Source: a virus
Reading direction: 5' to 3' (one strand)
DNA: 64,000 bases
IMG/VR virus record: IMGVR_UViG_3300045988_171958
Coordinates: 32,001 to 96,000 of that record
Shown here piece after piece: positions 132 to 39,626 of this stretch. Under the pieces are notes generated by a model. That model made no database searches. It saw nothing but the letters and a program-made list of their open reading frames with translations, and had not been told where the DNA came from. Position 1 is the first letter of the stretch. Each line of letters begins with the position of its first letter. The position numbers and the translations under genes were made by a program.

Positions 132-222
132 TTCTCCAGGGAAGCGCCTGGGTCACACAGGGAGCGGAAGAATATGTTTCAGTATATTCTATCAGCTAAG
201 ACAATTTTAACGTCCTTGGCAC
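132..222 (+). repeat. GC-rich structured element, copy A (family of four)
   Basis: Core AGCGCCTGGGTCACACAGGGAGCGGAA at 143-169 and an inner hairpin GAATAT/ATATTC at 170-189. The 3' arm TCCTTGG..AC (213-222) is complementary to the core. About 53 of 60 positions match the reverse complement of 46087-46178 in my hand alignment. Confidence 0.7.
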
Positions 223-231
223 AATAATTTA

Positions 232-255
232 AGTTCTTGAACAGAACTATGAAAA
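232..255 (-). repeat. post-stop motif ..TAGTTCTGTTCAAGAACTT (copy on minus strand)
   Basis: The reverse complement reads GTTTTCATAGTTCTGTTCAAGAACTT. The same GTTCTGTTCAAGAA hairpin motif occurs at 3730-3754 and 34965-34993. Confidence 0.5.
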
Positions 256-1706: not shown

Positions 1707-2360
1707 ATGATAAATTTCAATTTCATAATTGATTGCTTAGCTTCATTAAATACTATGAGGAATGATGTTGGGTCTATGAAAAACATCAATATTCTTTCTG
1801 ATATGATTAAAGAAGCTATATTGGACAATCAAACAATATATATTACAGGAATAGGTAAGCCAGGATATATAGCTCAAAAGAATGCTGCCACATTGAAATC
1901 AATAATGGTTGATGGACAATTCATAGATGCGTGCTTAGCAGGACATGGAGATTTAGGACCTATTTCAACTGACAAACCATCTTTGTTGATTGCTATGTCA
2001 AAATCTGGATGTTCAAATGAACTTTATGTGTTGTTCAAATACATGAAACAATTGCGACCAAAATGTAAAATTGCAATGATTTGCATGTCAAATGAAATGC
2101 AATTGAATAAAGTAAGGTCATGTAAAGATATTGATTTTATTTGCCATATAAAGACAGATCCAGGAGAGTTGGATGGATTTGGAATTGTACCGGCTACATC
2201 AAATATAATATTTGAAGCAGTAATGTCCACAGCTATATCTGGGGCATTCAATTCAGAAGAGCTTGGTATGGTAAACATGTGTGAAAGATTGCAAAAGAGT
2301 CATCCATCAGGAACATTGCAATCAAAAGTTACTAATCTTTTGAATACTTTAAGAAATTAA
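1707..2360 (+). CDS. SIS-domain sugar-phosphate isomerase, KdsD/KpsF-like (arabinose-5-phosphate isomerase type)
   Basis: IYITGIGKPGYIAQKNAATLKS resembles the GxGKSGxIgxKiaATlaS SIS motif. ..AGHGDLGPIS..LLIAMSKSGCSNEL resembles the HGDLG / SxSGxtxE motifs of KdsD. No CBS domains are present. Confidence 0.7.
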   Translation: MINFNFIIDCLASLNTMRNDVGSMKNINILSDMIKEAILDNQTIYITGIGKPGYIAQKNAATLKSIMVDGQFIDACLAGHGDLGPISTDKPSLLIAMSKSGCSNELYVLFKYMKQLRPKCKIAMICMSNEMQLNKVRSCKDIDFICHIKTDPGELDGFGIVPATSNIIFEAVMSTAISGAFNSEELGMVNMCERLQKSHPSGTLQSKVTNLLNTLRN

Positions 2361-2368: not shown

Positions 2369-2401
2369 AATATTGTCTATATTAGTATTGATTTAAAATT
2401 G

Positions 2402-3727
2402 ATGAAAATGAAAAAGAATTGTTTATTTGTTGTTCAGTCACATTATCCAGAAAGCCATTATATGGAGCTTAACTTAGAGTTAGTTTTTCCATTCTATTTG
2501 GTTACAGATGGAGAAAAAACTATAATTGAGAGAAAGATTGATGAGTTGCTTAATAAATATGATGGGGATATTTATGTTTATGAGGCATTTCATGAATATG
2601 CCGAGTTGCTAAATTCATTTCTTTGCCACAATAGAGAATCTTATGATAGAGTGCATGTAATTTCCGAAATTGATCGAATGGGTGATTTGACAAAAACTTT
2701 TTCTATTGAATGTTGGGATAAAGGTATCAGAGAAGAATTTGACCAAAAGAAATATCTTAGGGATTTGTCAACTAAAAATACATGCAGATATTTCAATCAG
2801 ATTAAAATTGAAGATGATAAAGTAATTAAGATTGCAAAGACAGAAGATGCTATCAAATTACAAAAAATTGAAAATGATTTCTACGACAAATATAGCAATA
2901 TACCATGTTTGTGCGGAAAACAAGGATATGATGAAAATAAACATGAATTGATTTTGAATAAAATCGACGGAGTAACAGCTCAAGAATGGTATTATAAAAA
3001 TGGTGATTTTAAGAAATTGATTTCTAATGTAATCAAAGCTTTACATACCATTAATGATGTTGATATAGATGTAGATGATGAAGATGAAGATATCAGAAGA
3101 GCATTCTACAATGAATTGATTGGAAAGGTATATACTAGGGTAAATCCATGTAAGAAATTGATTGATTATTTCATTGAAGAAACAGAAGTAAGGTGTATTG
3201 ATTACATGCCAATTACAACACATTTTAATGTATTGATGGATGCATTAAAGAAATGGTATGAAAATAATGAAATCAATTTCAATGCATGTCTTTGTCATGG
3301 TGACCCAAATACAGATAATACAATGATTGATAAAGATGGTAATGTAATCTTTATTGATCCTCGTGGATATTTTGGGAATCTTAAGACAATTGGATTAGGA
3401 ATGGCAGAATATGATATTGCAAAATTCTGCTATGGACTTAATGGATATTCAAGATTCAACAGTGCTCCTTATGTCACAATTGAAGAAATTGATTATTCTG
3501 ATGGTATGAATCTTAAATTAGAATATCCATCTGGTGATTTTTCTTCAATTACACAAATTGATTTGGATGATATGCCAATTGATACAAATATAAAGATTAT
3601 CGTTGGTATTATTTGGATGAAATTGACTTCATATATTATAAATGATCCAATGAAGAGTGTAATTGCTTATCTTTATGGAAATGCAATTTGTACAAAATAT
3701 TTAAAGGAATTAAAATATCTAAAGTAA
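2402..3727 (+). CDS. two-domain protein with a C-terminal APH/choline-kinase-like phosphotransferase
   Basis: CLCHGDPNTDNTMIDKDGNVIFIDPRG matches the HxDxxxxN catalytic loop plus IDxx(G) of the aminoglycoside/choline kinase fold. The N-terminal ~200 aa is unassigned. The first ATG is at 2402; the ORF track starts at the TTG at 2399. Confidence 0.7.
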   Translation: MKMKKNCLFVVQSHYPESHYMELNLELVFPFYLVTDGEKTIIERKIDELLNKYDGDIYVYEAFHEYAELLNSFLCHNRESYDRVHVISEIDRMGDLTKTFSIECWDKGIREEFDQKKYLRDLSTKNTCRYFNQIKIEDDKVIKIAKTEDAIKLQKIENDFYDKYSNIPCLCGKQGYDENKHELILNKIDGVTAQEWYYKNGDFKKLISNVIKALHTINDVDIDVDDEDEDIRRAFYNELIGKVYTRVNPCKKLIDYFIEETEVRCIDYMPITTHFNVLMDALKKWYENNEINFNACLCHGDPNTDNTMIDKDGNVIFIDPRGYFGNLKTIGLGMAEYDIAKFCYGLNGYSRFNSAPYVTIEEIDYSDGMNLKLEYPSGDFSSITQIDLDDMPIDTNIKIIVGIIWMKLTSYIINDPMKSVIAYLYGNAICTKYLKELKYLK

Positions 3728-14245: not shown

Positions 14246-15293
14246 TTATAGCTTCTACTAACTTTTCAAAGAACTTACAATTAGTTTCTTCTATGTTAGG
14301 GTCATTGATAGGAGAGCTCGGTCCAGGTGCACCATTCAATTCTACTACTATAGTGTTTCCATTCTGTAATGGTAGCATGTCAACACCACACCATTCAAGA
14401 CCAGATGCTTTAGCAGCTGCTAAAGCCAGCTTTTCTTGTTCAGAAGTCATCTTGTAGTCATCTTCCATGTCACAACCAAGACTGAGATTAGTTCTGAAGT
14501 CTTTACCTTTCTTTCTCATGATAGAAGACAATATCTTTTGCTTACCATTCAATGTAAGTACATGAGCTCTGATATCACCATCTTTTATATCTTGAAAGTC
14601 TTGTATGAGTATTGGACAGTTTTCCTTCAATTTGAACAAACATTGCAATATAGATACAATGTTTTTGCCACGACAGCAAAACACACCTTTGCCACCATGT
14701 CCATTCAGAATCTTACAAACATATTTTAATCCATCATCAAGCTTACCATAGAGTTGCTTTAGCTTTTCATCTAGCTTCTTATGATCTTCTTTATCTATAT
14801 CACCAGAAGTTGCAAGTACATATTTTGGTTGTGGAAGTTCTGCTTTTGTCAAGAAACATGCAGTTGCATATTTATCAGATGACATAGCTACTGCTTCTGG
14901 ATTGTTCAATATCAGTATATCTAATTCTTGTATAGCATCAAGTAAAGCTGATATCACTTCCTTAGTATATCCACTACGCATCAATACTACTGTGTTCTTA
15001 GAATCTGCTTTAGTAAGTACTACATCTGGCAAGTCTTTCTCTCCACTATATATGTGTACTTTATCATCTTTGAAAGAAAAGTTGAGCTTGGTAGGATCTG
15101 CATATTCTACTTTTATCTTATCTCTCTTAAGCATCTTTACAGAATTCAAGTAAAGTTCACCTATCAATATTATTCTTTCTACTTTCTTAAGCTTAGTATG
15201 ATTTTCTACTTTACTGTTACTGTTTTTTTCTACTATATATTCTATAGATTTCAGTTCAGTAATGTAGTTTGTTCCATTGTACTTCATTTTCAA
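14229..15293 (-). CDS. RimK-like ATP-grasp ligase (paralogue of the previous gene, without a peptidase domain)
   Basis: VCKILNGHGGKGVF, GDIRAHVL, FRTNLSLGCDMEDY and WCGVDMLP..VVELNGAPG align with the neighbour. There is a 17-nt overlap with the downstream gene. Confidence 0.75.
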   Translation of the reverse strand: MKMKYNGTNYITELKSIEYIVEKNSNSKVENHTKLKKVERIILIGELYLNSVKMLKRDKIKVEYADPTKLNFSFKDDKVHIYSGEKDLPDVVLTKADSKNTVVLMRSGYTKEVISALLDAIQELDILILNNPEAVAMSSDKYATACFLTKAELPQPKYVLATSGDIDKEDHKKLDEKLKQLYGKLDDGLKYVCKILNGHGGKGVFCCRGKNIVSILQCLFKLKENCPILIQDFQDIKDGDIRAHVLTLNGKQKILSSIMRKKGKDFRTNLSLGCDMEDDYKMTSEQEKLALAAAKASGLEWCGVDMLPLQNGNTIVVELNGAPGPSSPINDPNIEETNCKFFEKLVEAINELCK

Positions 15294-15737: not shown

Positions 15738-16247
15738 ATGGTTATTGCAATTATTTTAATATTGTTATCAGTTTGCTTGTTCTTGGGTTATTGCATTTAC
15801 TCAACATTTAGTGAAAGCAATTTTGATATTATAAATGATATCAGATATGATAAGAAAGGTTTCTTTGGAAGTATTGCTGTTATCATTGTATGTTTGGTAG
15901 GAATTTACTTCTGCTTTGTAACACCTACTTCATTTATCAGAAATGAGTATGTACATAAGAATGGTACAATGACAGTAGTTGAATATTCACTTACAGGTGA
16001 TTCTACAACCAATACTAATGTTAAGTTGCCAAAGACTACTTATGGAACTGTAAAAGAAGTAAAATTCCATTCAAGACTTAATGGTAAGATTTGGAATTAT
16101 TATACTGATGTTACTGTTCACCTTAATGATGGTAGAGTACTTTATAAGGAGCTTAGTGGTAAGAGAAAGTCTATTAAGGAAGGCAATGGAATGTCATTGA
16201 CAGAAACATTCTATCCTTATTACGAAATGGAATTTACATTTAATTAA
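15738..16247 (+). CDS. membrane protein with two N-terminal TM segments
   Basis: First ATG in the ORF. MVIAIILILLSVCLFLGYCIY and GSIAVIIVCLVGIYFCFV are hydrophobic helices. Confidence 0.65.
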   Translation: MVIAIILILLSVCLFLGYCIYSTFSESNFDIINDIRYDKKGFFGSIAVIIVCLVGIYFCFVTPTSFIRNEYVHKNGTMTVVEYSLTGDSTTNTNVKLPKTTYGTVKEVKFHSRLNGKIWNYYTDVTVHLNDGRVLYKELSGKRKSIKEGNGMSLTETFYPYYEMEFTFN

Positions 16248-16254
16248 TATATAC

Positions 16255-16503
16255 ATGGAAGCAGTTGGATTTATCTTAGTAGGAATATTGATAGGTGCAT
16301 GTTTAGTCACTTTAATGTCATTATGGGTATATCATCAATCATGTCCAAATTATACAGAAAGAGAAACTGGAGTTATTTGGCACTTGAAAACAGTAGCAGC
16401 AGATGCATTTTCTGGTAAAGCTGTCTATATAATGCAATCTACTAAGACAGCAGAAGTATTAGCAATGAATATGCAAGATTTTAACAACAGGTTCAGACAA
16501 TAA
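16255..16503 (+). CDS. small single-pass membrane protein
   Basis: 82-aa ORF with N-terminal VGFILVGILIGACLVTLMSLWV. Confidence 0.55.
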   Translation: MEAVGFILVGILIGACLVTLMSLWVYHQSCPNYTERETGVIWHLKTVAADAFSGKAVYIMQSTKTAEVLAMNMQDFNNRFRQ

Positions 16504-16518
16504 GTTTGAACCTGTTTT
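16488..16518 (+). terminator. intrinsic terminator
   Basis: Stem CAGGTTCA (16488-16495) / TGAACCTG (16507-16514), followed by TTTT. It spans the stop codon. Confidence 0.65.
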
Positions 16519-16535
16519 AGTCTAATTACTATATT
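16505..16535 (+). promoter_or_regulatory. promoter (TTTGAACC-N12-ATTACTATATT) of the U32 operon
   Basis: The -35-like box lies in the 3' arm of the preceding terminator hairpin, the same nested arrangement seen at several other promoters in the window. Confidence 0.45.
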
Positions 16536-16576
16536 AATATTAATATTAAAGTTTAATTAAAAAGAAAGAAGTAAAT

Positions 16577-17722
16577 ATGAGTTGGAAACCTAATTTTGAT
16601 TACAGCAACAAGAACATGAACTTTTATAAAGTTGGTTGTAATTTCGATCCTAAATTGATTGATGTTGCTGTAGAGTTGAATAAGAAATATAAGGGTAAGT
16701 CACAGATTGTAGAATTTTTTGGATCTGATGCAAGTAATGAAGTAGTAACTGCAAGACCAGGTTGGAGATTGCCAGATATTGATAAAGAATTCTTTGCAAA
16801 TTATGTAAAGAAGTTGAAGGATAACAATATCGCATTCAACTATACAATGAATTCAATTCAGCCTTATGGTTCAAAAATGGAAATGCTGAATCATAAGAAA
16901 GATATTCAGGATCTTGTAAAATGGCTAGAAAATATTGGTGTAGCACGTATTACTGTGGCAAACCCAATGATGTTACTTTTTATTAGAGAAGTATCAAATA
17001 TTGAAATTGAGATGTCATGTATTTCTCATATTGATACTGTGACTCAGTTGAAGTATTATCATGAAACATTTGGAGTAAATAAGTTCTGTAATTCAATTCT
17101 TAAGAATCGTAATAAGCATTTCTTAATTAATGCACAGAAGTATTGTGATGAAAATGGTTGCATATTAGAATGTATGGCAAATGAATTTTGTGGAGTAGCT
17201 GGTGTTGATGGAAATGGTACTCATTATGCCACACATTGTGTATTTAGAGATTCTTGCTATCTCTGTCATGCAACAAACAAGACAAAAGAGGATAGTATGT
17301 CTTACAATAATTATCCAATGGGATATTGTATGTCAGCACGTTCATCAACTCCAGAAGCTTGGCTTCGTATGAGATTCATTAGACCAGAGGATCAAAAAAT
17401 TTATCGTGAAAATACTGGTGTAAATTATTTTAAACTTTCTGGTAGAACTGGTACCACAGATTATCTTGAATACATTATGAATGCATATATGTCAGAAAAC
17501 TATGATGGTAATCTTCTTGGTTTGTGGAAACCTCTTTCATCAATTTATGATGGAAAAACAGAATTGAAATCTAAAACAGATATTGATATTCCAAATAAGA
17601 AGCTTGATGGATTCATCAATAAGTGGATGGATGGAAATGGATGGGAATGTGCTGACCAGATGTGTGGTACAACCTGTGATTATTGTGCAAAATTTGCTAA
17701 AGAACATAACTTATATGACTAA
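16577..17722 (+). CDS. peptidase-U32-family protein (RlhA/TrhP/UbiU-type putative hydroxylase)
   Basis: TIM-barrel-like N-terminal half (..VARITVANPMMLLFIREV..IEMSCISHIDT..), a Cys-rich block (ECMANEFCGV..THCVFRDSCYLCH) and ..VNYFKLSGRTGTTDYLEYIMNAY (compare the KIEGR block of E. coli YhbU). Family recognised by eye. Confidence 0.6.
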   Translation: MSWKPNFDYSNKNMNFYKVGCNFDPKLIDVAVELNKKYKGKSQIVEFFGSDASNEVVTARPGWRLPDIDKEFFANYVKKLKDNNIAFNYTMNSIQPYGSKMEMLNHKKDIQDLVKWLENIGVARITVANPMMLLFIREVSNIEIEMSCISHIDTVTQLKYYHETFGVNKFCNSILKNRNKHFLINAQKYCDENGCILECMANEFCGVAGVDGNGTHYATHCVFRDSCYLCHATNKTKEDSMSYNNYPMGYCMSARSSTPEAWLRMRFIRPEDQKIYRENTGVNYFKLSGRTGTTDYLEYIMNAYMSENYDGNLLGLWKPLSSIYDGKTELKSKTDIDIPNKKLDGFINKWMDGNGWECADQMCGTTCDYCAKFAKEHNLYD

Positions 17723-18038
17723 TATAACTAACTCTGATTTGAAACTTCTCAAATCATGCAGAGCAGAAATTACAAGAGGTGACCGGTCATTGGTCAACCT
17801 CTTGATTTCTAGAATGAATAATGCTATATTGATAGGAAGAATCAAGAAGAAAGCAGATGAACCTATTGTACAACCAGACAGATGGAATCATGTAATGAAA
17901 AATGTGCATAAGCAATTAGAAGGTTCAAGACTTAGTACTGAATATAAAGAAGAATTTGACTATCTTATTGATAGTATATTCAATATTATTCATGAAGTAT
18001 CATGTAAATTGCAAGAAAAGGATCATGACAATAGATAA
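17715..18038 (+). CDS. AroQ-class (type II) chorismate mutase
   Basis: LKSCRAEITRGDRSLVNLLISRMNNAILIGRIKKKADEPIVQPDRW aligns with the PheA CM domain ([30 protein letters not shown]..DIDRE), conserving the Arg11, Arg28, Lys39 and Arg51 equivalents; the Glu52 equivalent is Trp. The ATG overlaps the U32 stop region. Confidence 0.6.
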   Translation: MTNITNSDLKLLKSCRAEITRGDRSLVNLLISRMNNAILIGRIKKKADEPIVQPDRWNHVMKNVHKQLEGSRLSTEYKEEFDYLIDSIFNIIHEVSCKLQEKDHDNR

Positions 18039-19137
18039 GAAATTTGTAGACGACCACATGCAAGATAAGAATATCTTGTACATACCTATTATCTCTTCTA
18101 TAAATAGAGAGACAAACAAGTATAATTTGGATAGTGATGGAAATGTAGTACGTTTTATTACATTTTTTGAACATCATAAGAATTTCAATACTTTGACAAT
18201 ATTGCTTCCAAAGAATAATGAATCACATGATATCATTGACAGGTGGGTAAAAGACAATGATAATATTGAAATCATTTGGTCAGATAATTTTGGTAAGCAT
18301 GCTGGTGAACAAAGAAGTGATTCTGATGTTGTGAGTAAGATGGAGATGGAATTGTTTGAACTTATAAATAATCCAGATAATGATAATGATTTCAATATTG
18401 TAATGTTTGAAAGTCAATTTTTAGGAAATTTATTGGTTGACCCATATTGGTTTAAAGGATTTGAAAAGGTTTTCTGGTGTCCAGTTTGTAAGATTGATAA
18501 TGAGCATACAAGAAATTTCTTAGAGGGATATGATAATTTGAATAAGAAATTGTTTCAACTTTCGGATTGGTCAATTGTAGAAAGTCCAACACAACTCAAG
18601 AAATTCTCTTTACCAGAATGTTCAATATACCCTTATTATATGATGATGGATCGCAATCTGAAATATTTTGATTATATGACAGATTTTGGATTGAAAGATA
18701 CTATTAAAACAGTTAAGAATCTTGATACAGGTACTTATTCTATTTATTATATTCCTTATAGATTGACTGATGAAGGATATAAAGTAGATGATGTTATTTC
18801 ATATATTAATTATGACTATGCTGATGTGGTTGTTGTGTATTATACAGATCCAAACAATAGTGGAGCAATGGAAGATTTGAAGAAAAAATTCAATTCAAAT
18901 GTTGTTTTCATCAAATTATCAACAGATAGAAATACACATTTTACCATGTTGTCATCAGAAGATGTTGTTGTACCATACTTTGAAGATTTAGATTTCATCA
19001 ATCATGCAACTTTATGGGAAATGATGTCATCAAAATCAAGATGTCAATTTGGAATAACTAAGGAACAATATGATATGAATTCATATAATATGAAATCTTG
19101 TGATAGATGTTTCTATATTGATTTAAAGAATTTATAA
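18025..19137 (+). CDS. hypothetical protein (possible glycosyltransferase-like alpha/beta protein)
   Basis: 370-aa ORF from the internal ATG, overlapping the chorismate mutase stop by 14 nt (translational coupling). No motif recognised; the suggested function comes from context only. Confidence 0.35.
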   Translation: MTIDKKFVDDHMQDKNILYIPIISSINRETNKYNLDSDGNVVRFITFFEHHKNFNTLTILLPKNNESHDIIDRWVKDNDNIEIIWSDNFGKHAGEQRSDSDVVSKMEMELFELINNPDNDNDFNIVMFESQFLGNLLVDPYWFKGFEKVFWCPVCKIDNEHTRNFLEGYDNLNKKLFQLSDWSIVESPTQLKKFSLPECSIYPYYMMMDRNLKYFDYMTDFGLKDTIKTVKNLDTGTYSIYYIPYRLTDEGYKVDDVISYINYDYADVVVVYYTDPNNSGAMEDLKKKFNSNVVFIKLSTDRNTHFTMLSSEDVVVPYFEDLDFINHATLWEMMSSKSRCQFGITKEQYDMNSYNMKSCDRCFYIDLKNL

Positions 19138-19147
19138 ATGAAATAAA

Positions 19148-20371
19148 ATGAATCATGATAGTATTTTATTAAAAATCTTTTTTAATAAAGAGAATAAGAT
19201 AATTGGAGGAAAAGTAGCAAGGATAAAAAGAATATTCCCAAACATATTGTCTTATTTAAATAAAAGATATCCTGATTCATTTTCTTTAAAAGAAACTCTA
19301 ATTAGGATGAAATATCATATTGATGTTCATCCAAAATGCCCGGTTTGTGGAAATTTTACAAAGTTTTATGGGTTTAAAAATTTGATGTTTGCAAATCATT
19401 GTTCTAACAAATGTACTCAATTAGATAGTGAAACTAAAATAAAATTTAAACAAACTTGCTTTAAAAAATATGGGGTTGATGCTCCAATGAAATCTTCTAA
19501 AATAAAAGAAAAATCTAAACAAGTTTGTTTAGAAAAATATGGTGTGGAAAATATATCACAATTTTTTGAAACTAAAGAAAAATATAAACAAACTTGTTTA
19601 GAAAAATATAATGTTGATAATCCATTTAAATTAGAAAAAACGAAAATAAATTCACATTCAAAAGAAGCTAAAGAAAAGCAAAGAAAAACTTGTTTAGAAA
19701 AGTATGGAGTAGAAAATTCATTCCAATCAAAAGAAGTTAGACAAAAATATAAAGAAAATTATAAAAGAAAATATGGAGTAGAAAATCCATTTCAAAACGA
19801 AATAATAAAAGAAAAGATAAAACAAACTTGTTTAGAAAAATATGGTGTTGATAGAGCAATTAAAAGTGATTTGGTAAAAGAAAAATGTAAACAAACTTGC
19901 TTGGAAAAATATGGAAGTAGTTCACCAATGAAAAACCCATATATTGTAAATAAATCTATAAATAAGAGAATTCAAAACAATACTTGGTCTACTTCAAAAC
20001 CAGAAGAAGAATTGTATCTTTATATAAAAGAAAGATTTCCATCTGTAAAAAGACAGTATAAAGATAAAGAAAGATACCCATATTTTTGTGATTTCTACAT
20101 TCCTGAATTAGATTTGTTTTTAGAATTGAATGGGACTTGGACACATGGAAACCATCCTTATGATATGAATTCTAAAGAAGACAATTCTATATTAAATATA
20201 TGGAAAGAAAAATCTAAAGAACATCCTATGTATTTAAGTGCAATAAAAACATGGGTTGTAAGTGATGTAAATAAGAGAAATAAAGCAAAAGAAAATCATT
20301 TAAATTTTAAAGAAGTTTGGAATTTAGATGAAGGAAAAGAATTTATAAATAAATTAACTAGAAGAGAATAA
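19148..20371 (+). CDS. homing-endonuclease-like protein: Zn-ribbon, eight CLEKYGV repeats and a C-terminal PD-(D/E)XK (Vsr/DUF559-like) domain
   Basis: CPVCGN..HCSNKC at the N-terminus, then 8 copies of K-x-T-C-L-E-K-Y-G-V-x-N. The C-terminus ..YPYFCDFYIPELDLFLELNGTWTHG resembles the D..(E/D)xK nuclease core. Confidence 0.5.
   Translation: MNHDSILLKIFFNKENKIIGGKVARIKRIFPNILSYLNKRYPDSFSLKETLIRMKYHIDVHPKCPVCGNFTKFYGFKNLMFANHCSNKCTQLDSETKIKFKQTCFKKYGVDAPMKSSKIKEKSKQVCLEKYGVENISQFFETKEKYKQTCLEKYNVDNPFKLEKTKINSHSKEAKEKQRKTCLEKYGVENSFQSKEVRQKYKENYKRKYGVENPFQNEIIKEKIKQTCLEKYGVDRAIKSDLVKEKCKQTCLEKYGSSSPMKNPYIVNKSINKRIQNNTWSTSKPEEELYLYIKERFPSVKRQYKDKERYPYFCDFYIPELDLFLELNGTWTHGNHPYDMNSKEDNSILNIWKEKSKEHPMYLSAIKTWVVSDVNKRNKAKENHLNFKEVWNLDEGKEFINKLTRRE
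19441..19930 (+). repeat. in-frame tandem repeats (~90-99 nt units) encoding the CLEKYGV motif
   Basis: AAACAAACTTGTTTAGAAAAATATGGTGT-like strings recur about eight times at ~30-aa spacing. Confidence 0.7.
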
Positions 20372-20373
20372 AG

Positions 20374-21846
20374 ATGAATGTGATATTAGTAAGTGGTGGA
20401 TTACAGACTAGATTTAATGAACTTTCTTGTTTTCCTAAGATATTGTTGCCATCAAAAGATGGAACACCAATTTTGATTAAGCAATTAGATTATTTTGATG
20501 AAGCAAATACAGTAAGTATCGTTGTAAATCAAAAATTTGCAAAGATCATGAAAGCTTATATTGAAATCAATCATCTTAATGTTGATGTGATTGTATCTGA
20601 TAATACTAATGGTTCAGGCAATACTTTAGCTTCTGTATATGATTGGCTTCCAAAAAAGAATGTTTTGTTTTTCTGGTCAGATATTTTGTTTGATAATGAT
20701 GAATTCAAATTGGATAGAAAAATTGAAGATAAAGACAATTGTGTGATTTTTACTGTAAATGATGCAAAATATCGATATAAGATAGAAGATGGTAAGATTG
20801 TAAACAGATCATTTGCTTATGATGGAAATATCCCAGGTATCTTTTGGATCAAAGATATTTCAGAGGTTATTCCAACTAAACCATGTGATGAAAATAAAGA
20901 TTTGATTGATATCATTCAAGAAAAAGTGAATGATGGTATGATTACTTTTGTTGAGTCAAATATCAATACAAAGATTACTGAATATAAGTCATTATCAGAA
21001 TATAAGAAGATTATGTCAACTTCTTATCAGAAAGATTTAGTTTTACCTACTGATATGGAAGTTTCGTATACTGATAAAGAATCCATGCAATATGTAGCAA
21101 AAACAAATGAGCATTTGAATTATCAATATGACTGGATTTCTTTTTTATCTTATAATCCTGGAATTAGTGATTATGTTGTAGATATGCCAGTAAGTAAGAC
21201 AGAAGACGGATACGTTTGTGATATGCACAATCTTGAAGGATATACACATGCATCAAAGGTAAATCTTACTAATCTTTTAAACAATTTTGTAAGATATAAA
21301 GTAGATGTACCATTGTCAACATCTGTAAAATTTTTGTTAGAAGAATATAATGGTAAACCACTGAAGGGGATTTGTGATACATGCAGACTTTTTGAAAATA
21401 ACAGAACATTTGCAGAAGTTCAAACACTTATAGATAATGCATGTAATCTTCTTATAGATGGTTTAGCGAATGATGAATGGGTATTAACTCATGGAAACAT
21501 CAATTCTCATAATGTTCTTGTAAATATGACTGGTGATATCAAATTGTATAATCCAGTATCAAGAAGAAATGGATCTTTTTTCTGCCATCCAATTGTCGAC
21601 CAATCAGAAGCTTATATGGTAGAGATTGGATTAGATGAAGCTTTGAGAAAGGAAATGACATATAAAGTAGATGAACTTCCAAAGATAGAAGATTGTGATG
21701 TGTTTATTGAAACTGCTATCTATCTTCATTTACTTGGTATGCTTCCAATGTTTGCAAAAGATATTATGAAATTGAATATTGTATTGGAGTATGCTATTTC
21801 AGGATTGTCTAACATAATTAATGAATGTATTGATGGAAACAAGTAA
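20374..21846 (+). CDS. bifunctional sugar-phosphate nucleotidyltransferase / APH-like kinase
   Basis: N-terminal MNVILVSGGLQTRF..PKILLP matches the (L)AGGxGTRL..PK signature. C-terminal LTHGNINSHNVLVNMTGDIKLYNP matches the HxDxxxxN-type kinase loop. Confidence 0.65.
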   Translation: MNVILVSGGLQTRFNELSCFPKILLPSKDGTPILIKQLDYFDEANTVSIVVNQKFAKIMKAYIEINHLNVDVIVSDNTNGSGNTLASVYDWLPKKNVLFFWSDILFDNDEFKLDRKIEDKDNCVIFTVNDAKYRYKIEDGKIVNRSFAYDGNIPGIFWIKDISEVIPTKPCDENKDLIDIIQEKVNDGMITFVESNINTKITEYKSLSEYKKIMSTSYQKDLVLPTDMEVSYTDKESMQYVAKTNEHLNYQYDWISFLSYNPGISDYVVDMPVSKTEDGYVCDMHNLEGYTHASKVNLTNLLNNFVRYKVDVPLSTSVKFLLEEYNGKPLKGICDTCRLFENNRTFAEVQTLIDNACNLLIDGLANDEWVLTHGNINSHNVLVNMTGDIKLYNPVSRRNGSFFCHPIVDQSEAYMVEIGLDEALRKEMTYKVDELPKIEDCDVFIETAIYLHLLGMLPMFAKDIMKLNIVLEYAISGLSNIINECIDGNK

Positions 21847-21931
21847 GTTTAAGACATCAAGAAGAGTATTGAGAGAAGGTTTGACTTGGGCTGATTATTT
21901 TAAGTCCAAGCATACCTTAGAATATATCAAT

Positions 21932-22414
21932 ATGAAGAAAATCATAATTTCTGACTGTGATGGTATCTTGACTGATGGAAATATGACTTATGATGACAAC
22001 AGAAAACGATTTAAAACCTATGGTTGCCATGATAAGGAATTATTCAATATTGCTAAAGACCTTGGATGGGAATTCTTATTTGTAACAGATGATAGGACTG
22101 GATGTGATATTACAGACAGAAGAATAAGTAATTCTTTCATGTTACATGTTACAGAAGCTGATCCAAATGAAAGAGAAAAATTAGTTAAGAAATATAGGGA
22201 TAATGGATACATTGTTGCTTTTATTGGAGATAGTCCAAGTGATGTATCAGCTGCTGTAGCGGCAAATATATGTGCTACTACAGATAATTGCTTTGAATAT
22301 ATAAAACCATTTTTTCATTATGTTTCTAAATATCAAGGTGGACACGGAGGATTTGCTGATATATTATATCAACTAATGCTAATGGATAAAGATGATCTTG
22401 AAATCTATAAGTAA
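21932..22414 (+). CDS. HAD-IIIA phosphatase, KdsC-like
   Basis: MKKIIISDCDGILTDG matches the KdsC DxDGVLTDG motif I, and FIGDSPSDVSA matches motif IV (GDxxxD). The internal ATG was chosen because it sits 6 aa before motif I, as in KdsC. Confidence 0.7.
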   Translation: MKKIIISDCDGILTDGNMTYDDNRKRFKTYGCHDKELFNIAKDLGWEFLFVTDDRTGCDITDRRISNSFMLHVTEADPNEREKLVKKYRDNGYIVAFIGDSPSDVSAAVAANICATTDNCFEYIKPFFHYVSKYQGGHGGFADILYQLMLMDKDDLEIYK

Positions 22415-22425
22415 ATCATAAAATC

Positions 22426-22468
22426 AATACTGTATTTTTAATTTAGAAATAAATTTAAATACAGTATT
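22426..22468 (+). terminator. 12-bp hairpin directly before the next ATG
   Basis: AATACTGTATTT (22426-22437) / AAATACAGTATT (22457-22468), followed by TT and the ATG at 22471. Confidence 0.5.
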
Positions 22469-22470
22469 TT

Positions 22471-23700
22471 ATGATTAAACATATAGAAGAACCTAGTGGA
22501 AAGGGAAGAATAGCATGCATATCTTTACCAGTAAGACATATACTAGTGAATAGAGACAATATCACCATGTATAATGTATATCATTATTGGAAGTATTTGA
22601 CAGAATTTTTGAAATATGATAAAGTATATATATTGACAACATCGTTGTCTAATTCTGGTGAAAAATATAATAACATATTGAAAGATTGCCCATTGATATA
22701 TGGAATTGAAAAGAAAGACTTGTTATTAGATTATCATATAAATGACATGTGGATTGTTCCAGCTCAGACAAATATATTTGGTGGAATGGCTATTATGACC
22801 TTTCCATTTTGTATGAATAGAATATATGAATGGTGGAAATCAAAATCTGCATCAGATAAGATGATATTCATTAATGATGATCCAGAAGTATGTAAGCTTT
22901 GGTTTTTCCGATATCATACTAATCGTTATGCTATTAAGAAAGATGCAAGGATAGTGTGGAAACAAGGAATAAATCAAGATAATTGGAATACAGAAATTGA
23001 TTTGTTAGAATCAAGATATGATGATATATGCAATATGGAAAATGATTTTGATTTGGCATTTTGTGGATTAGATTATGATAAATATGTTAAAGAGTATGGG
23101 ATAAAGGTCTTGCCAAAATCTTGGTTTAATTTCAATGTTTACTATTACATTACATTAAATGATGATTTAGATTTGAGAATGAGAAATTATGACTTTAATG
23201 ATAAGAAATATTCTGCTTGCTATTATGGATATATTAAAGATTTAGATAGAATAGCTAGAACAGAAGAATTTTACAGTAAAGTTGATAAGCCATTTTTAGT
23301 AATTAAAGGAGGTAGTAAGAATTTCTTTAAACATGTAGATTTTGACCATGATATAGATCTTGTAAAAAATATGCCTTATTCAGATTTGCTAAAATTTGTT
23401 CCATCAAATGCTAAGTCTTCATTAATAACACATAACAAATGTATATTGGGTAATCAAGTATCACCAAGATGGTTTGATTTGATGCTTATGGATATTGTAT
23501 GTTTTGTTGACGAAGCTTTTGATCCAAACCATGAATTGTGTGATGATTGGCTTTATGAACATACATATTGTAAGAATGGACAAGATTATGCAGACAAGCT
23601 TAAGAAAATAGAAAACAACGAACCATTATATAGAGAGATTGTTCAAAGACAACGTAAGTTTGTATTTGAAAAGTATGAAAAATATCTCCCGAAATTCTAA
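22471..23700 (+). CDS. T4 beta-glucosyltransferase-like DNA glycosyltransferase (putative)
   Basis: ..SSLITHNKCILGNQVSPRWFDLMLMDIVCFVDEAFDPNHEL.. resembles, from memory, T4 BGT ..ALIIGDKNYNDNFITLRVWETMASDAVMLIDEEFDTKHRI... The preceding YSACYYGYIKD..R segment resembles VIYGGSFRSGQR. Confidence 0.5.
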   Translation: MIKHIEEPSGKGRIACISLPVRHILVNRDNITMYNVYHYWKYLTEFLKYDKVYILTTSLSNSGEKYNNILKDCPLIYGIEKKDLLLDYHINDMWIVPAQTNIFGGMAIMTFPFCMNRIYEWWKSKSASDKMIFINDDPEVCKLWFFRYHTNRYAIKKDARIVWKQGINQDNWNTEIDLLESRYDDICNMENDFDLAFCGLDYDKYVKEYGIKVLPKSWFNFNVYYYITLNDDLDLRMRNYDFNDKKYSACYYGYIKDLDRIARTEEFYSKVDKPFLVIKGGSKNFFKHVDFDHDIDLVKNMPYSDLLKFVPSNAKSSLITHNKCILGNQVSPRWFDLMLMDIVCFVDEAFDPNHELCDDWLYEHTYCKNGQDYADKLKKIENNEPLYREIVQRQRKFVFEKYEKYLPKF

Positions 23701-23823
23701 TTTATATATAAAGTATATTAAATTGATTAATATGAAATGGGTAGAAAATAAAACACAGATTCCTATTTATGGATATCAAATATCTACAGATGGTAAGAAG
23801 TATATTTATGTTTGTAAATAAAA

Positions 23824-24426
23824 ATGGAAAAAATTCGGATCATAGTTCTTGAAGGTTGTGATAGAACCGGTAAAGGAACATTATTGGAAAATTTAAAGAA
23901 TAGATTTGATGATTTTTTAGTATATAATCCAGTATCAGCAGAGAAGGAAAAGGTAGATTATAAAAATCCACAGAAATTTGAAGAGTGGATTAAGAAAACA
24001 ATTCGTAAAGTACTTGATGACTTATATACTATGTCAAAGTTGAATGGTACTGATAGACCTATTGTAATGGATCGTCTTTTACTTACAGATAACGTATTTG
24101 CAGATTTATTTGATCGTAAACATGTAGTGGAAAAGTATTTTGGTAGAGAAATTGAAGCAAACTTCAAATTGACTAATTACATTATGCTTTGGAGAAATCC
24201 AGAAGAGTATAAAGATCGAGTAAATTTGTTGAAAGAAAATCAAGATTTTACAGAAAAAGAAATTGATGATATTCTAAGTTTATTCAATGAATATAAGAAA
24301 TCAAATGATATAGTAAAGTTGATTGACAATACAGATACACCAGAAGATATATTAGATGATTTTGTATCAACATTTATTGAAGAAACCCCTAAATGGAAAT
24401 TAGAACATGATAGTACAACACACTAA
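23824..24426 (+). CDS. thymidylate-kinase-like (d)NMP kinase
   Basis: P-loop IIVLEGCDRTGKGTLLENL (compare IxxEGxDGxGKsT) and a downstream MDRLLLTD (DR motif). 200 aa. Confidence 0.6.
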   Translation: MEKIRIIVLEGCDRTGKGTLLENLKNRFDDFLVYNPVSAEKEKVDYKNPQKFEEWIKKTIRKVLDDLYTMSKLNGTDRPIVMDRLLLTDNVFADLFDRKHVVEKYFGREIEANFKLTNYIMLWRNPEEYKDRVNLLKENQDFTEKEIDDILSLFNEYKKSNDIVKLIDNTDTPEDILDDFVSTFIEETPKWKLEHDSTTH

Positions 24427-25009
24427 AACATTGAATTATACAAAACCTACAGATTTGTTCAATTATATTATAGATACATATAAGGATGAACAGTATATGA
24501 AAGATTATGTTCTTAGTGCATCTAGAACAGAAATTTTAGAAGATTATACAAGTAGGAAGAAGGTAATGGTAACTGATGTTTTACCGTTAGGTGAAAAGGA
24601 CTATGATAAAGATGCATTAGATTTTGCTACACAACTTGGATGGGAATTTACATTATATTCAGATAATAGTATATGCCCATTATATGATGAACAGGATTGG
24701 TTAGCAAGTTGGAATTGCTACCATTATGATGATGTAGAAAAAATATGTACTTATATTCGTTCAAAGAGAAATAATGGATATACAACAGCATTCATTGGAT
24801 ATAAGATGGAAGATGTATTTGCAATGTTTGAAGCAAATTATAGTGGTACTTGTGTTGATGCATTACAATATACAAAGCAATATTGTGATTTTGTATCTGA
24901 TAGGACATTCAATTCATTTGCCTTTGCTGAATTGTTAGTACATATAGTAAAACAAGATGTGAAGAAATTCTTAAGAGAAAATTTCCAAAAATATTTTATT
25001 AAAAAGTGA
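24407..25009 (+). CDS. degenerate KdsC-like HAD paralogue (probable pseudoenzyme)
   Basis: QLGWEFTLYSDN and RNNGYTTAFIGYKMEDVFA align with DLGWEFLFVTDD and RDNGYIVAFIGDSPSDVSA of 21932-22414. Motif I is VTDVLPLGE (no DxD) and the motif IV aspartates are lost. Confidence 0.55.
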   Translation: MIVQHTKTLNYTKPTDLFNYIIDTYKDEQYMKDYVLSASRTEILEDYTSRKKVMVTDVLPLGEKDYDKDALDFATQLGWEFTLYSDNSICPLYDEQDWLASWNCYHYDDVEKICTYIRSKRNNGYTTAFIGYKMEDVFAMFEANYSGTCVDALQYTKQYCDFVSDRTFNSFAFAELLVHIVKQDVKKFLRENFQKYFIKK

Positions 25010-25015
25010 AAAATA

Positions 25016-25044
25016 TTTGAAATATTCTTGAATAATTCTATATT
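25016..25044 (+). promoter_or_regulatory. promoter (TTTGAAAT-N12-TTCTATATT)
   Basis: Exact consensus, followed by ATATATGTT. Confidence 0.6.
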
Positions 25045-25081
25045 ATATATGTTAATTTTAATTATTTAATTTAATTTAATT

Positions 25082-25450
25082 ATGATGACTACATTTGTTA
25101 AGAAATATAATTTTGCTAAGTTCATTAACTTCATTAGATCAATTGATGGAGATTTCAATAATGCTTCTATTGAATATATTACTGATGCAATATATGATGA
25201 TACATACGATAATAATGAAGATGAACTTGTCAATTCTGACAAGTCTGGTATCATAGATGTATTAGATATCATTAAGACAGCAATGACAAAGAAAAGAGCT
25301 AAGAACATTACTGTTACTATTGCTGATGATGAATATATTGATGATGTAATTAATGTTTGGATGAAACTTGACAATAATCCTACTTATGTTTTGTCATTAT
25401 GTAAAGGAATTTATGAAGAAAAGATAAATGAATGGTTAGAGCTTAATTAA
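25082..25450 (+). CDS. acidic hypothetical protein
   Basis: 122-aa ORF downstream of a consensus promoter. The antisense ORF 25066-25374 is Ser/Ile low-complexity. Confidence 0.6.
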   Translation: MMTTFVKKYNFAKFINFIRSIDGDFNNASIEYITDAIYDDTYDNNEDELVNSDKSGIIDVLDIIKTAMTKKRAKNITVTIADDEYIDDVINVWMKLDNNPTYVLSLCKGIYEEKINEWLELN

Positions 25451-25505
25451 GTTCTGCCATTTCTAATTGATGTTTAATAATTTAAAAAGTAAAATTAAAA
25501 GAAAA

Positions 25506-26639
25506 ATGAAGAAGTTTATTTTAACAATGTTGCTGGCTTTGACAGCAGTATTTAGTGTTAATGCTCAGACACAGTCTAATTATGCTGGTAGTTCTAAGTT
25601 TATGGACAATGTTTCTGTCGGTGTAGTTGGTGGTGTTGAGACTAATCTCAATCAGTGGAATTGGCCACATGGTGCTGTAACTGGTATTGTTATCAATAAG
25701 GAAATTACTCCAGTATTTGGTGTAACACTTGAAGGTACAACTGGTATCAATAACATTACTAATTGGAATAATGGATATCGAACTAGTTGCAGCAATGCAT
25801 TTGATACTTGGTCAGTAATGATTGCAGGACGTGTAAATCTTACTAATGCTATTTGGAAGTATAATGGTAAGCCACGTAAGTTCGAAGTAGAGACTAATAC
25901 AGGTATTGGATACGGTAATATGCACCATGCTTATCATATTGATGGTCTATGGAATGATCCAGAGCATCTTGCAAACCATTACATGTGCAAGCTTGGTCTT
26001 AATCTGAATTATAACGTAACAGATGCATGGACTATTACTTTGCGACCAGCAGTTATTTATGCTATTAGTGAATATAATGGAGCAAATTTTGATACACGTA
26101 CTTCTGTAGCACAGCTTACTGCAGGTATTGTATATCACTTCAAGACAAGCAATGGTACTCGATCATTCAATAAGGCTAAGCTTTATGACCAGGCAGAGGT
26201 TGATATGTTGAATGGAAAGATCAATACACTTCAGAAGAATCTTAATGATGCAAATGCAACTATTGAGGTAATGCGTGATTCTCTTACAAAGACAAATACT
26301 TTGATTGAGACAAATGAGGTAACTAAGATGGTATATCCAAAGATTCAGTTTAAGAAGGGTACAGCTAAGATTGAGTCAACATCTATGGCTAATATTTATG
26401 ATATTGCTGATGCATTAAAAGATGTTGATGGTACTATCAAGGTAACTGGATATGCTTCTACTGAAGGTTCTACTAAATATAATAAAGAACTTTCACTCAA
26501 GCGAGCAGTAGCAGTTAAGAATGCACTTATCAAGGCAGGTGTTGATGCATCAAAGATTAAGACTATCGGTGCTGGTCCTGTAAATAAGTTCTCTCCTGAT
26601 AACCTTGAGTTGAATAGAATTGTTACAACAGAGAAGTAA
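25506..26639 (+). CDS. OmpA-family outer-membrane protein with a signal peptide
   Basis: Signal peptide MKKFILTMLLALTAVFSVNAQ, an aromatic-rich beta-barrel-like N-terminal half and a coiled-coil linker. The C-terminal OmpA_C-like region is FKKGTAKIE..VTGYASTEGSTKYNKELSLKRAVAVKNALIKAGV. Confidence 0.8.
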   Translation: MKKFILTMLLALTAVFSVNAQTQSNYAGSSKFMDNVSVGVVGGVETNLNQWNWPHGAVTGIVINKEITPVFGVTLEGTTGINNITNWNNGYRTSCSNAFDTWSVMIAGRVNLTNAIWKYNGKPRKFEVETNTGIGYGNMHHAYHIDGLWNDPEHLANHYMCKLGLNLNYNVTDAWTITLRPAVIYAISEYNGANFDTRTSVAQLTAGIVYHFKTSNGTRSFNKAKLYDQAEVDMLNGKINTLQKNLNDANATIEVMRDSLTKTNTLIETNEVTKMVYPKIQFKKGTAKIESTSMANIYDIADALKDVDGTIKVTGYASTEGSTKYNKELSLKRAVAVKNALIKAGVDASKIKTIGAGPVNKFSPDNLELNRIVTTEK

Positions 26640-26670
26640 CATTAAATAAATCCTCTGAGAATTGTAAACA

Positions 26671-26703
26671 AAAAAGCTCAGACCCAGGGTCTGAGCTTTG
26701 TTC
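26671..26703. terminator. bidirectional intrinsic terminator
   Basis: AGCTCAGACC (26675-26684) / GGTCTGAGCT (26688-26697), flanked by AAAAA and TTTG, between convergent genes. Confidence 0.75.
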
Positions 26704-26721
26704 GTATATAGATTAAATAAA

Positions 26722-27192
26722 TTAATACAATTGAATATGTTTTTCATTATCTGAGTCTTTTCTCATGATACTTGAAAAATTAGAATATCTACCGACAGTT
26801 TTTATTATCACATTACATTTTTTGAATCTAGGATCTGCCCAAGAAACGAACCCAACAACAGTCAACGGTAATTTTCTATCTGTTCTTGCATCCATGATAA
26901 CAAAAGTCATAGGTTCTTTTTCTCCATAATGAGATACCTTCAACTTACCATCTTTCAACATCTTCAATATATCATCTTTAGCGCCCATTACAGCTTCAAT
27001 AATTTCAGGATCTTCAATTTTTCTTTCAGATTTTTTATCCTCAACATGAGTTCCTGTCATTATGCTTATAGGAGAATACTTGTATGTTCCTTTGCTTTTA
27101 TCAAATACAGGCCAAATTTTCTTGTTAGCTTCAAATACGAAACCCAAGTCAATTTCCAAAGATTCTGATATATATTGTGAAAAATTTATCAT
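26722..27192 (-). CDS. hypothetical protein
   Basis: The internal ATG (MINFSQYISES..) was chosen. The 31-aa N-terminal extension in the track (MFMFLFILIII..) runs through the divergent promoter. Confidence 0.6.
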   Translation of the reverse strand: MINFSQYISESLEIDLGFVFEANKKIWPVFDKSKGTYKYSPISIMTGTHVEDKKSERKIEDPEIIEAVMGAKDDILKMLKDGKLKVSHYGEKEPMTFVIMDARTDRKLPLTVVGFVSWADPRFKKCNVIIKTVGRYSNFSSIMRKDSDNEKHIQLY

Positions 27193-39334: not shown

Positions 39335-39626
39335 AAGCGTAATACTACAGCCCATCTAAAACCTCTCGAACCATGCTTAATGGGTGTGGCAGCATAAGAA
39401 AATAAATAAGCTGCTGCTAACGGTTAGGTCCATTTATAATAGATGGATGAGATCCGTGCTAAATTGATAAATTTATTTATCATAAAGGTGTATCGACTAT
39501 CCCTGATGAGTGTAAGGGAGTAGAATCTGAGATAAGCACAGATTCGGAGCGTGAGGCCTCTGTTCATTTATGATAAATGAACTTAGGAACATATAGTCAG
39601 TCCTGTTAGTAATAACAGATAAGATG
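39335..39626 (+). other. group I self-splicing intron (292 nt, no internal ORF)
   Basis: P1 pairs exon GATGGGT (39328-39334) with intron GCCCATC (39350-39356), with a U.G wobble at the splice site. P10 pairs 3' exon TGTAG (39627-39631) with CTACA (39345-39349), immediately 5' of the guide. The intron ends in G (39626), contains several GC-rich hairpins, and splicing restores the frame. Confidence 0.8.

Follow-up and report, generated by a model that had tools for sequence, protein, structure and literature searches.

Introduction

The beta-glucosyltransferase (BGT) of phage T4, a member of CAZy family GT63, is known from textbooks as an enzyme that modifies DNA and is routinely used to map 5-hydroxymethylcytosine (5hmC). 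The DNA of phages RB69 and DLP3 contains mono- and poly-arabinosylated 5-hydroxycytosine (5hoC) (PMC13326640), and the gene clusters for this modification in RB69, HY126 and DLP3 are referred to here as arabinosyl-5-hydroxycytosine (Afh) clusters. This article describes a gene, 22471..23700, in a 64,000-nucleotide stretch of viral DNA (positions 32,001 to 96,000 of IMG/VR virus record IMGVR_UViG_3300045988_171958), which is called the window throughout. Its product, the window glycosyltransferase (GT), is probably a BGT-superfamily DNA glycosyltransferase that works in a hypermodification operon of the Afh type, a reading that draws on sequence comparison and on a predicted structure.

The described Afh clusters contain a thymidylate-kinase-like (TMK-like) kinase, GTs, a ThyA homologue, a U32/collagenase-like protein, a HAD phosphatase (AfhF), a nucleotidyltransferase-kinase (AfhE) and an arabinose-5-phosphate isomerase (PMC13326640). 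In the RB69/DLP3 pathway, 5-hydroxy-dCMP (5hodCMP) is made by the flavin/O2-dependent ThyA homologue, and RB69 gp46:47 (‘arabinosyltransferase 1’, AraT1) is the proposed base-proximal GT (PMC13326640). The extra GTs of RB69 and DLP3 lengthen the sugar chain on DNA and do not duplicate the first step, and phage Thanatos, which is mono-arabinosylated, has an AraT1-type GT only (PMC13326640).

A divergent member of the BGT superfamily

T4 BGT is the sole match for the window GT among 177,635 distinct PDB sequences, both in a single-sequence phmmer search (E 1.4e-3) and with a profile of the 18-sequence window-clade alignment A2 (E 4e-10). The PHROG 7922 family, ‘beta-glucosyltransferase’, matches the window GT with E 1.4e-7, and a tblastn search of 50,697 phage records gives 43 matches, every one of them to a T4-like b-gt gene. 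When A2 is compared by hhalign with an alignment of T4 BGT and nine BGT-like sequences (A3), the probability is 99.7% (E 8.9e-26) over 354 columns that pair residues 13-409 with BGT 1-351. The best Pfam signal in the window GT is a weak, generic, sub-threshold match to Glyco_trans_1_2.

The gap between the window GT and T4 BGT is bridged by 66 proteins that the family profile retrieves in an exhaustive HMMER search over 1.84 billion representatives and that form a continuum. This continuum runs from ~14 full-length relatives of 410-455 aa, through ‘intermediates’ of 350-410 aa with similarity to the window family (E 1e-15 to 1e-7) as well as to both domains of T4 BGT, to genuine BGT homologues (T4 BGT E 1e-37 to 1e-54). 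A word-indexed homologue search gave 7 proteins only, and the bridging sequences came from the exhaustive search. The close relatives fall into five clusters at 68-92% identity, none of them annotated; the largest, the 90%-identity cluster of the 92%-identical relative P0001, has ~1,556 member sequences on contigs of up to 288 kb. A megablast search of window positions 16000-27000 against the 50,697 phage records gives no match.

Structure comparison points the same way. An AlphaFold model of the window GT, generated from a 47-sequence alignment (A4), has a pLDDT of 92.9 and a pTM of 0.91; it replaces a run on a 6-sequence close-family alignment that reached a pLDDT of 42 and was unusable. With this predicted model as query, the top six Foldseek matches in the PDB are T4 BGT structures (E 3.8e-13 to 3e-11, TM to target 0.72-0.75). 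The next matches are T4 AGT and generic GT-B enzymes at E >= 4e-6, so the margin of BGT over any other GT-B enzyme is seven orders of magnitude, and the viral structure library agrees.

A preliminary description of the window, written from the sequence alone, had delimited the open reading frame (ORF) correctly and had aligned its C-terminal segment by eye with T4 BGT. The translation contains both peptides that it quoted, KYSACYYGYIKDLDRIAR (residues 246-263) and SSLITHNK...DPNHEL (316-356). Its T4 BGT segments are correct as well: the T4 BGT sequence in which the two occur matches PDB 1bgt_A with 100% identity over 351 residues. The alignment is reproduced in silico by phmmer, which pairs residues 311-396 with BGT 247-329, and is also recovered by hhalign and MAFFT, which set KKYSACYYGYIKDLDR against KTLDVIYGGSFRSGQR. 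The resemblance is real; its confinement to the C-terminus does not stand, since the intermediates extend the homology over both domains. The suggestion of a very divergent BGT-family member agrees with an identity to T4 BGT of ~15% and with the silence of the Pfam BGT model. Profile and structure comparison, which the description had named as checks, both return BGT as the best and specific match (hhalign and HMM; Foldseek), and because both favour BGT, neither a lack of BGT similarity nor an unrelated fold was found.

On profile and model evidence, the window GT thus belongs to the T4 BGT (GT-B) superfamily over its full length, as a very divergent member. Judged by its sequence, it is a deep, previously unannotated branch that lies outside the Pfam family boundary and inside the superfamily, with an apparently intact catalytic machinery.

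The conserved positions are consistent with this assignment. T4 BGT Asp100, the catalytic base, aligns with D137, and this position is Asp in 17 of 18 clade members, 19 of 20 intermediates and all nine BGT-likes; PDB 1nzd, among the Foldseek matches, is the D100A mutant with UDP-glucose. On the donor side, the equivalents of T4 R191, R195, R269, E272 and D287 are K256, R260, R333, D336 and D351, and R260 is invariant in 47/47 A4 sequences. Arg191, Arg195, Arg269 and Glu272 of T4 BGT are diphosphate/ribose ligands. The N-x-F-G-G loop is kept (T4 N70-F-F-G-G74, N101-I-F-G-G105 in the window GT). T4 Glu22 is replaced by N35. Divergence is greatest in the N-terminal acceptor domain, whose insertions account for the extra length of 58 residues relative to T4 BGT. 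From its sequence, the window GT is read as having the same inverting chemistry and diphosphate grip as BGT with altered recognition of the nucleotide and the acceptor.

In comparison with T4 BGT (PF09198; PDB 1bgt, 1qkj, 1nzd), the window GT therefore shares a predicted two-domain GT-B fold with homology over both domains, a phage origin, the catalytic Asp, the NxFGG loop, the diphosphate/ribose ligands and, in relatives, adjacency to pyrimidine-C5-modifying genes. It differs in that no dCMP hydroxymethylase lies nearby and in that it belongs to a nucleoside diphosphate (NDP)-pentose and U32/chorismate-mutase operon with an unrelated second GT.

The surrounding operon

Five window genes are shown by sequence comparison to be homologous to the RB69/HY126 arabinosyl-5-hydroxycytosine DNA-modification cluster (PMC13326640). 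They encode the U32-like protein (RB69 gp50, E 8e-111, 43% identity in pairwise alignment), the AraT1-like GT, the nucleotidyltransferase-kinase 20374..21846 (RB69 gp53, E 2e-12), the kinase 2399..3727 (RB69 gp52, E 5e-30) and the A5P (arabinose-5-phosphate) isomerase (RB69 gp55, E 2e-12). In a further comparison the nucleotidyltransferase-kinase reaches E 1.3e-14 against gp53 and the kinase 2399..3727 E 2.7e-32 against gp52. The nucleotidyltransferase-kinase also aligns over its full length with the bifunctional AfhE-like enzyme of the related locus L032 (E 2.6e-48). For the AraT1-like family, hhalign against HY126 GT299 gives a probability of 97.1% (E 6.7e-11, 283 columns), and the family HMM reaches E 1.7e-14 to HY126 GT299 and 4e-11 to RB69 gp46. 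The 370-aa AraT1-like protein itself has no Pfam, PHROG or NCBIfam match and represents an uncharacterised family of 48 homologues. Homology of the HAD phosphatase to RB69 gp51 is undetectable, the window HAD being of the KdsC type.

This five-gene homology supports the suggestion of the preliminary description that the operon targets DNA. It also displaces the GT from the place given to it there as the strongest single indicator of DNA targeting, as the five homologues now outweigh the GT alone. The best explanation of the operon is a conserved variant of the Afh-type (RB69/HY126/DLP3) hypermodification pathway, again as read from sequence. In common with the Afh clusters, the window has homologues of the A5P isomerase, the AfhE nucleotidyltransferase-kinase, the U32-like gp50 and arabinosyltransferase 1, a HAD phosphatase that may be analogous, an analogous TMK-like kinase, and several GTs per cluster. 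It differs in lacking a ThyA-type flavin/O2-dependent synthase, as the related loci also do, and in having an added chorismate mutase and a KdsC-type HAD. Its extra GT is of the BGT family, whereas theirs are GT4-like (gp3, gp76/77), and the phage is a low-GC jumbo phage with a class III ribonucleotide reductase (RNR), unlike T4-like phages with aerobic or facultatively anaerobic hosts.

The operon genes and the parts of the window GT are listed in Table 1. The window GT sits in a tight run of + strand genes with short gaps or overlaps, in which the chorismate mutase ORF overlaps the U32-like stop by 8 nt and the downstream gene by 14 nt; the isomerase and the kinase 2399..3727 are located 15 kb upstream of the operon. 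The terminator scan finds no + strand terminator within the gene run. The promoter/terminator scan as a whole is at chance level (90 found vs 88.5 expected), and Rfam and tRNA scans of the window find nothing.

Table 1. Features of the modification genes and of the window GT (positions are those of the window)
Feature	Position	Strand	Remarks
KdsD-like arabinose-5-phosphate isomerase (SIS domain)	1707..2360	+	RB69 gp55 homologue
APH-fold kinase, 442 aa	2399..3727	+	Homologous to the arabinose-phosphate kinase domain RB69 gp52 (AfhE C-terminal)
U32-‘peptidase’-like protein, 381 aa	16577..17722	+	RB69 gp50 homologue
Chorismate mutase type II (CM_2), 107 aa	17715..18038	+	ATG at 17715; Pfam E 8e-14, above threshold
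Arabinosyltransferase-1 (AraT1) homologue, 370 aa	18025..19137	+	Homologous to HY126 GT299 = RB69 gp46:47
Homing-endonuclease-like gene	19148..20371		Between AraT1-like and AfhE-like genes; DUF7487; PHROG 3339, 12131
AfhE-like bifunctional enzyme, 490 aa	20374..21846	+	Sugar-1-phosphate nucleotidylyltransferase (N-terminal), divergent kinase (C-terminal)
HAD phosphatase, KdsC / KDN-9-phosphate phosphatase type, 197 aa	21821..22414	+	Putative functional analogue of AfhF / RB69 gp51
BGT-superfamily (GT-B) glycosyltransferase gene	22471..23700	+	ATG at 22471, stop ends 23700, 409 aa
N-terminal acceptor domain	residues ~1-240	+	Insertions relative to T4 BGT at ~56-90 and ~150-195
Codon of D137	22879..22881	+	DDP motif; aligns with T4 BGT Asp100
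C-terminal donor domain	residues ~246-402 (23206..23676)	+	Segment spotted in the preliminary description; contains K256, R260, R333, D336, D351
Thymidylate-kinase-like (TMK-like) nucleotide kinase, 200 aa	23824..24426	+	Position analogous to RB69 gp45

The homing endonuclease is missing at its site in nine related contigs (L005-L008, L015-L019), including L015, whose GT is 99% identical, and a DUF7487 gene is placed elsewhere in some of them. It is therefore regarded as a mobile, polymorphic insertion. Downstream of the TMK-like kinase, a 200-aa ORF (24407-25009) weakly resembles the operon HAD phosphatase (profiles E 6e-6 to 6e-12) and may encode a second HAD-like enzyme. On the other side of the operon, at 12479-15293 on the - strand, it is adjoined by two RimK-type ATP-grasp genes, one with an NlpC/P60 fusion; a RimK gene stands in the same place beside DNA-modification genes in the distant relatives L002, L011 and L033.

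Two other assignments were considered for operon genes and rejected. The 370/393-aa ORF is neither a ThyA-type hydroxylase nor a second BGT (ThyA profile E 0.59, no BGT-profile match, hhalign against A4 1%). A Kdo or nonulosonate pathway, which the KdsD-like, KdsC-like and nucleotidyltransferase genes and the DAHP_synth_1 domain in a relative had brought to mind, is disfavoured by the homology of the nucleotidyltransferase and the kinases to the parts of RB69 AfhE and by the lack of KdsA in the window; moreover, relatives carry a DAHP-synthase domain fused to chorismate mutase, which indicates the shikimate pathway instead.

Related loci

The gene content of the operon is stable among close relatives. 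All ten loci in which the GT is >=68% identical keep the U32, chorismate mutase, AraT1-like, AfhE-like, HAD, GT and TMK-like genes, and in one of them (L009) the chorismate mutase is fused to DAHP synthase. No ThyA homologue is found within 10 kb of the GT in these ten close-clade loci (L005-L009, L015-L019), nor in the divergent loci L031-L033.

These three divergent lineages were reached from the AraT1-like protein, and they always have U32 and never a ThyA homologue. L032 carries U32, a DAHP synthase-chorismate mutase fusion, a BGT-family GT and the AraT1-like, isomerase, AfhE-like, TMK-like and HAD genes. L033 carries U32, chorismate mutase, TMK-like and AraT1-like genes and a shikimate dehydrogenase, and L031 has the AraT1-like, isomerase, AfhE-like, TMK-like, HAD and U32 genes. 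As the BGT-family and AraT1-like GTs are also paired in L032, their pairing arose or persisted in at least two lineages.

The divergent relatives of the window GT itself (28-36% identity) have a different neighbourhood. In L002, L011/12, L020 and L025 they directly follow a ThyA homologue and a TMK-like kinase, and in L021/22 the relative directly follows a C5 DNA-methylase homologue. The ThyA homologues beside these divergent clade members keep Asp169 and have Asp at 177, a dCMP-hydroxymethylase-like signature; the RB69 gp48 control shows Asn169 (E. coli ThyA numbering), the published signature of 5hodCMP synthases. The GT is accompanied by a TAGT in L002 and by a second BGT-like GT in L011. 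Taken together, the sequence comparison of these loci suggests that U32 and a prephenate supply may take the place of the ThyA homologue in the U32-bearing lineages.

The C5-cytosine DNA-methylase homologue of L002 (3420-4700) has the ThyA homologue on one side and the GTs on the other, and that of L021 (8367-9602) is immediately upstream of the GT. Both may modify cytosine C5 at the DNA level in some way other than plain methylation.

A candidate oxygen-independent hydroxylase

O2-independent hydroxylation has been linked to several members of the U32 family, namely RlhA, TrhP and UbiU/V (PMC5727448, PMC6599085, PMC10990095). RlhA and TrhP act at C5 of cytidine and uridine, forming ho5C2501 in rRNA and ho5U34 in tRNA, respectively; TrhP is reported to depend on prephenate, which is the proven oxygen donor for UbiU/V (PMC5727448, PMC6599085, PMC10990095).

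The U32-like protein of the window has an above-threshold Pfam U32 match that spans residues 109-170 only. It has ten Cys in common with RB69 gp50 and its L009 counterpart, including a C-terminal CX4CX3CX2C cluster. Genes that could supply prephenate accompany U32, as the overlapping CM_2 gene in the window and as a DAHP synthase-chorismate mutase fusion or a chorismate mutase with shikimate dehydrogenase in relatives. The U32-like neighbour of the window GT resembles TrhP, RlhA, UbiU and UbiV in the U32 match, the many conserved Cys and the genomic coupling to a prephenate-producing enzyme; it is very divergent from them, and its substrate would be a deoxynucleotide or DNA. The window also encodes a class III (anaerobic-type) RNR. 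With this RNR and a U32 gene coupled to chorismate mutase, the phage is a strong candidate for making a 5-hydroxypyrimidine nucleotide anaerobically, and the product of 16577..17722 is a candidate O2-independent hydroxylase.

This assignment is weakened by three results: the phage U32-like proteins match E. coli TrhP/UbiU/UbiV only weakly in hhalign (probability 5.6%), phmmer of the phage protein against the PDB gives no match, and RB69 gp50 is labelled a ‘sugar or heterocycle reductase’ in the published cluster (PMC13326640). In the accessible literature, neither U32 nor chorismate mutase is connected with the modification of phage DNA.

The distribution of the two types of gene is informative. 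The U32-like gene (RB69 gp50) is carried by 222 cultured enterobacterial T4-like phages; in RB69 and HY126 it occurs together with the ThyA homologue. The listed cluster of DLP3, an Acinetobacter phage, has the ThyA homologue and no U32-like gene (PMC13326640), and the metagenomic jumbo-phage loci have U32 only. It is conceivable, and is put forward here tentatively, that jumbo phages make glycosylated 5hoC without O2, a prephenate-fed U32 Fe-S enzyme replacing the flavin/O2-dependent ThyA-like synthase.

The nrdD gene of the class III RNR (37880-40670) is split into two ORFs 226 nt apart, which encode 505 aa (ATP-cone and NRDD 2-250) and 348 aa (NRDD 271-562); no Rfam intron family is matched there. 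In RB69, gp49 (79 aa) was considered as a hidden chorismate mutase and rejected, having no Pfam match.

Proposed pathway and alternatives

The proposed pathway has three steps. The first step would turn ribulose-5-phosphate into an NDP-pentose, for which NDP-arabinofuranose is the likeliest candidate. The enzymes of this step would be the isomerase (1707), one or both of the kinases (2399 and the C-terminal part of 20374), the HAD phosphatase (21821) and the N-terminal nucleotidyltransferase of 20374. In the second step, the U32-like protein would form a C5-hydroxylated pyrimidine nucleotide, most likely 5hodCMP, without O2, using prephenate from the adjacent chorismate mutase; the TMK-like kinase would then phosphorylate the hydroxylated nucleotide for incorporation into DNA. 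In the third step, after replication, the AraT1 homologue (18025) and the BGT-like enzyme would glycosylate the DNA. D137 of the window GT would deprotonate an acceptor hydroxyl in the DNA major groove, which would attack C1 of the NDP-sugar with inversion.

The acceptor hydroxyl quite possibly lies on the first sugar laid down by the AraT1 homologue, in which case the window GT would lengthen the chain or add a second sugar, as RB69 gp3 and DLP3 gp76/77 do. Because the operon has a second, unrelated GT in the AraT1 homologue, the BGT-like enzyme need not be base-proximal. An AraT1-type GT stands alone in L031, L033 and Thanatos, so AraT1 appears sufficient at the base-proximal position and the BGT-like GT appears to be an optional add-on. 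An extension role is further favoured by the lack of a gp3-type extension GT in the window and by the concentration of divergence and insertions in the acceptor domain. The analogy to TAGT (T2/T6, PF20691), RB69 gp3 and DLP3 gp76/77 would be functional, a further sugar being placed on a glycosylated base, and would extend to gene content, as the genes in question are optional companions of a base-proximal GT. The folds or families are unrelated (GT-A for TAGT, GT4-like for gp3 and gp76/77), with no sequence homology to the window GT.

A somewhat less likely reading places the window GT at the base as well, acting on the cytosine 5-hydroxyl in parallel with the AraT1 homologue and giving different anomers or using different sequence contexts, like T4 AGT and BGT. 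The retained BGT catalytic apparatus and N-x-F-G-G loop fit such a role, base-level transfer is the only known activity of the family, and paired stereoisomer-forming GTs are beneficial against anomer-specific defences, with T4 AGT/BGT as precedent (PMC13216743). The L002 clade member is moreover the only GT-B enzyme beside a TAGT, the classical second-sugar enzyme (PMC13216743), which suggests that clade members can be base-proximal, a point that counts against chain extension. The clusters with an AraT1-type GT alone (L031 and L033; Thanatos, PMC13326640), the chain-extending role of the extra GTs in RB69 and DLP3 and the strong divergence of the acceptor domain speak for extension instead.

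A conventional T4-type enzyme, which would transfer glucose from UDP-glucose to 5hmC in DNA while a dCMP hydroxymethylase is encoded elsewhere and the sugar-activation and U32 genes serve the other GT, is unlikely. Its appeal is that the activity of BGT is the only one characterised in the family, that divergent clade members adjoin hydroxymethylase-like ThyA homologues (Asp169, Asp177) and a TAGT, and that the hydroxymethylase search covered 64 kb of a ~195-290-kb genome. It is opposed by the lack of a ThyA homologue both in the window (best E 0.17 with a ThyA profile) and within 10 kb in the ten close-clade loci, by the embedding of the gene in an operon homologous to the 5hoC arabinosylation cluster and by the replacement of T4 Tyr261 and neighbouring positions. 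BGT/AGT homologues are, in addition, missing from the arabinosylating phages of the RB69/DLP3 type (PMC13326640).

A role away from DNA, in which the substrate would be a small molecule, a glycan of the cell envelope or a host or phage protein and the BGT likeness would be reduced to a shared fold, is very improbable: the acidic pI, the Glyco_trans_1_2 signal and the nearby OmpA-domain and ATP-grasp/NlpC-P60 genes are outweighed by the specificity of the BGT similarity (Foldseek margin, sole PDB sequence match, hhalign 99.7%), by the report of GT63 and GT72 from phages exclusively (PMC13216743) and by the neighbourhood of the gene, which in every informative relative includes genes for modification of cytosine C5 or of nucleotides.

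A number of observations weigh against the preferred reading of the window GT as a DNA glycosyltransferase of an Afh-type operon. The Pfam BGT model PF09198 does not match it at E <= 10, although the model recognises 28 of the 47 A4 sequences. The alignment used for AlphaFold contained true BGT homologues, templates being unused. The isoelectric point (pI) of the window GT is 6.2, mildly acidic and unusual for a DNA-binding enzyme, against 9.05 for T4 BGT. A ThyA homologue, the type of enzyme known to create a hydroxyl on the base, is not found in the 64-kb window of the ~195-290-kb genome. Finally, the uracil-side contacts of T4 BGT, which would imply a UDP-glucose donor, are replaced: Tyr261 by I325, Ile238 by P302 and Met240 by S304. 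The position of Tyr261 is Tyr in 9/9 BGT-likes, His in 16/20 intermediates and Ile or Val in the window clade. The donor nucleotide is therefore uncertain. The donor is probably not UDP-glucose and the acceptor probably not plain 5hmC.

Host and other window features

A Bacteroidota-like host, as proposed in the preliminary description, is plausible and unproven. A Shine-Dalgarno-like core precedes 2 of 44 window genes, which equals the random background, and missing Shine-Dalgarno motifs are typical of Bacteroidota and atypical of Bacillota. Two contigs that are 99% identical (L026, L027) are binned in metagenome-assembled genomes labelled ‘uncultured Romboutsia sp.’ In view of the missing Shine-Dalgarno motifs this label is regarded as unreliable, and the binning is probably a low-GC artefact. 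Elsewhere, the window encodes a full-length DnaK (Hsp70, E 5e-204) with DnaJ (46618-49705) and a giant ORF of 2,625 aa on the - strand (55150-63027).

Implications

BGT has so far been tied to T-even-like phages, UDP-glucose and 5hmC, and the window branch would have been recruited into a different hypermodification chemistry. If its donor or acceptor differs from that of T4 BGT, the enzyme may become a new tool to label 5hoC or glycosylated DNA. The operon also offers a testable answer to how strictly anaerobic phage-host systems could make 5hoC, for which the only described enzyme needs O2, and to what role the conserved U32-like gene (RB69 gp50) plays in the 222 cultured T4-like phages. If the proposal of O2-independent synthesis is true, the window GT would be the first enzyme of the BGT family shown to take a sugar other than glucose from its donor, to act on an acceptor other than 5hmC (5hoC or arabinosyl-5hoC), or both. 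The U32-like and ThyA-like enzymes would form a pair that parallels the aerobic/anaerobic pairs TrhO/TrhP and UbiIHF/UbiUV, which would explain why phages of facultative enterobacteria (RB69, HY126) have both the ThyA homologue and the U32-like gp50.

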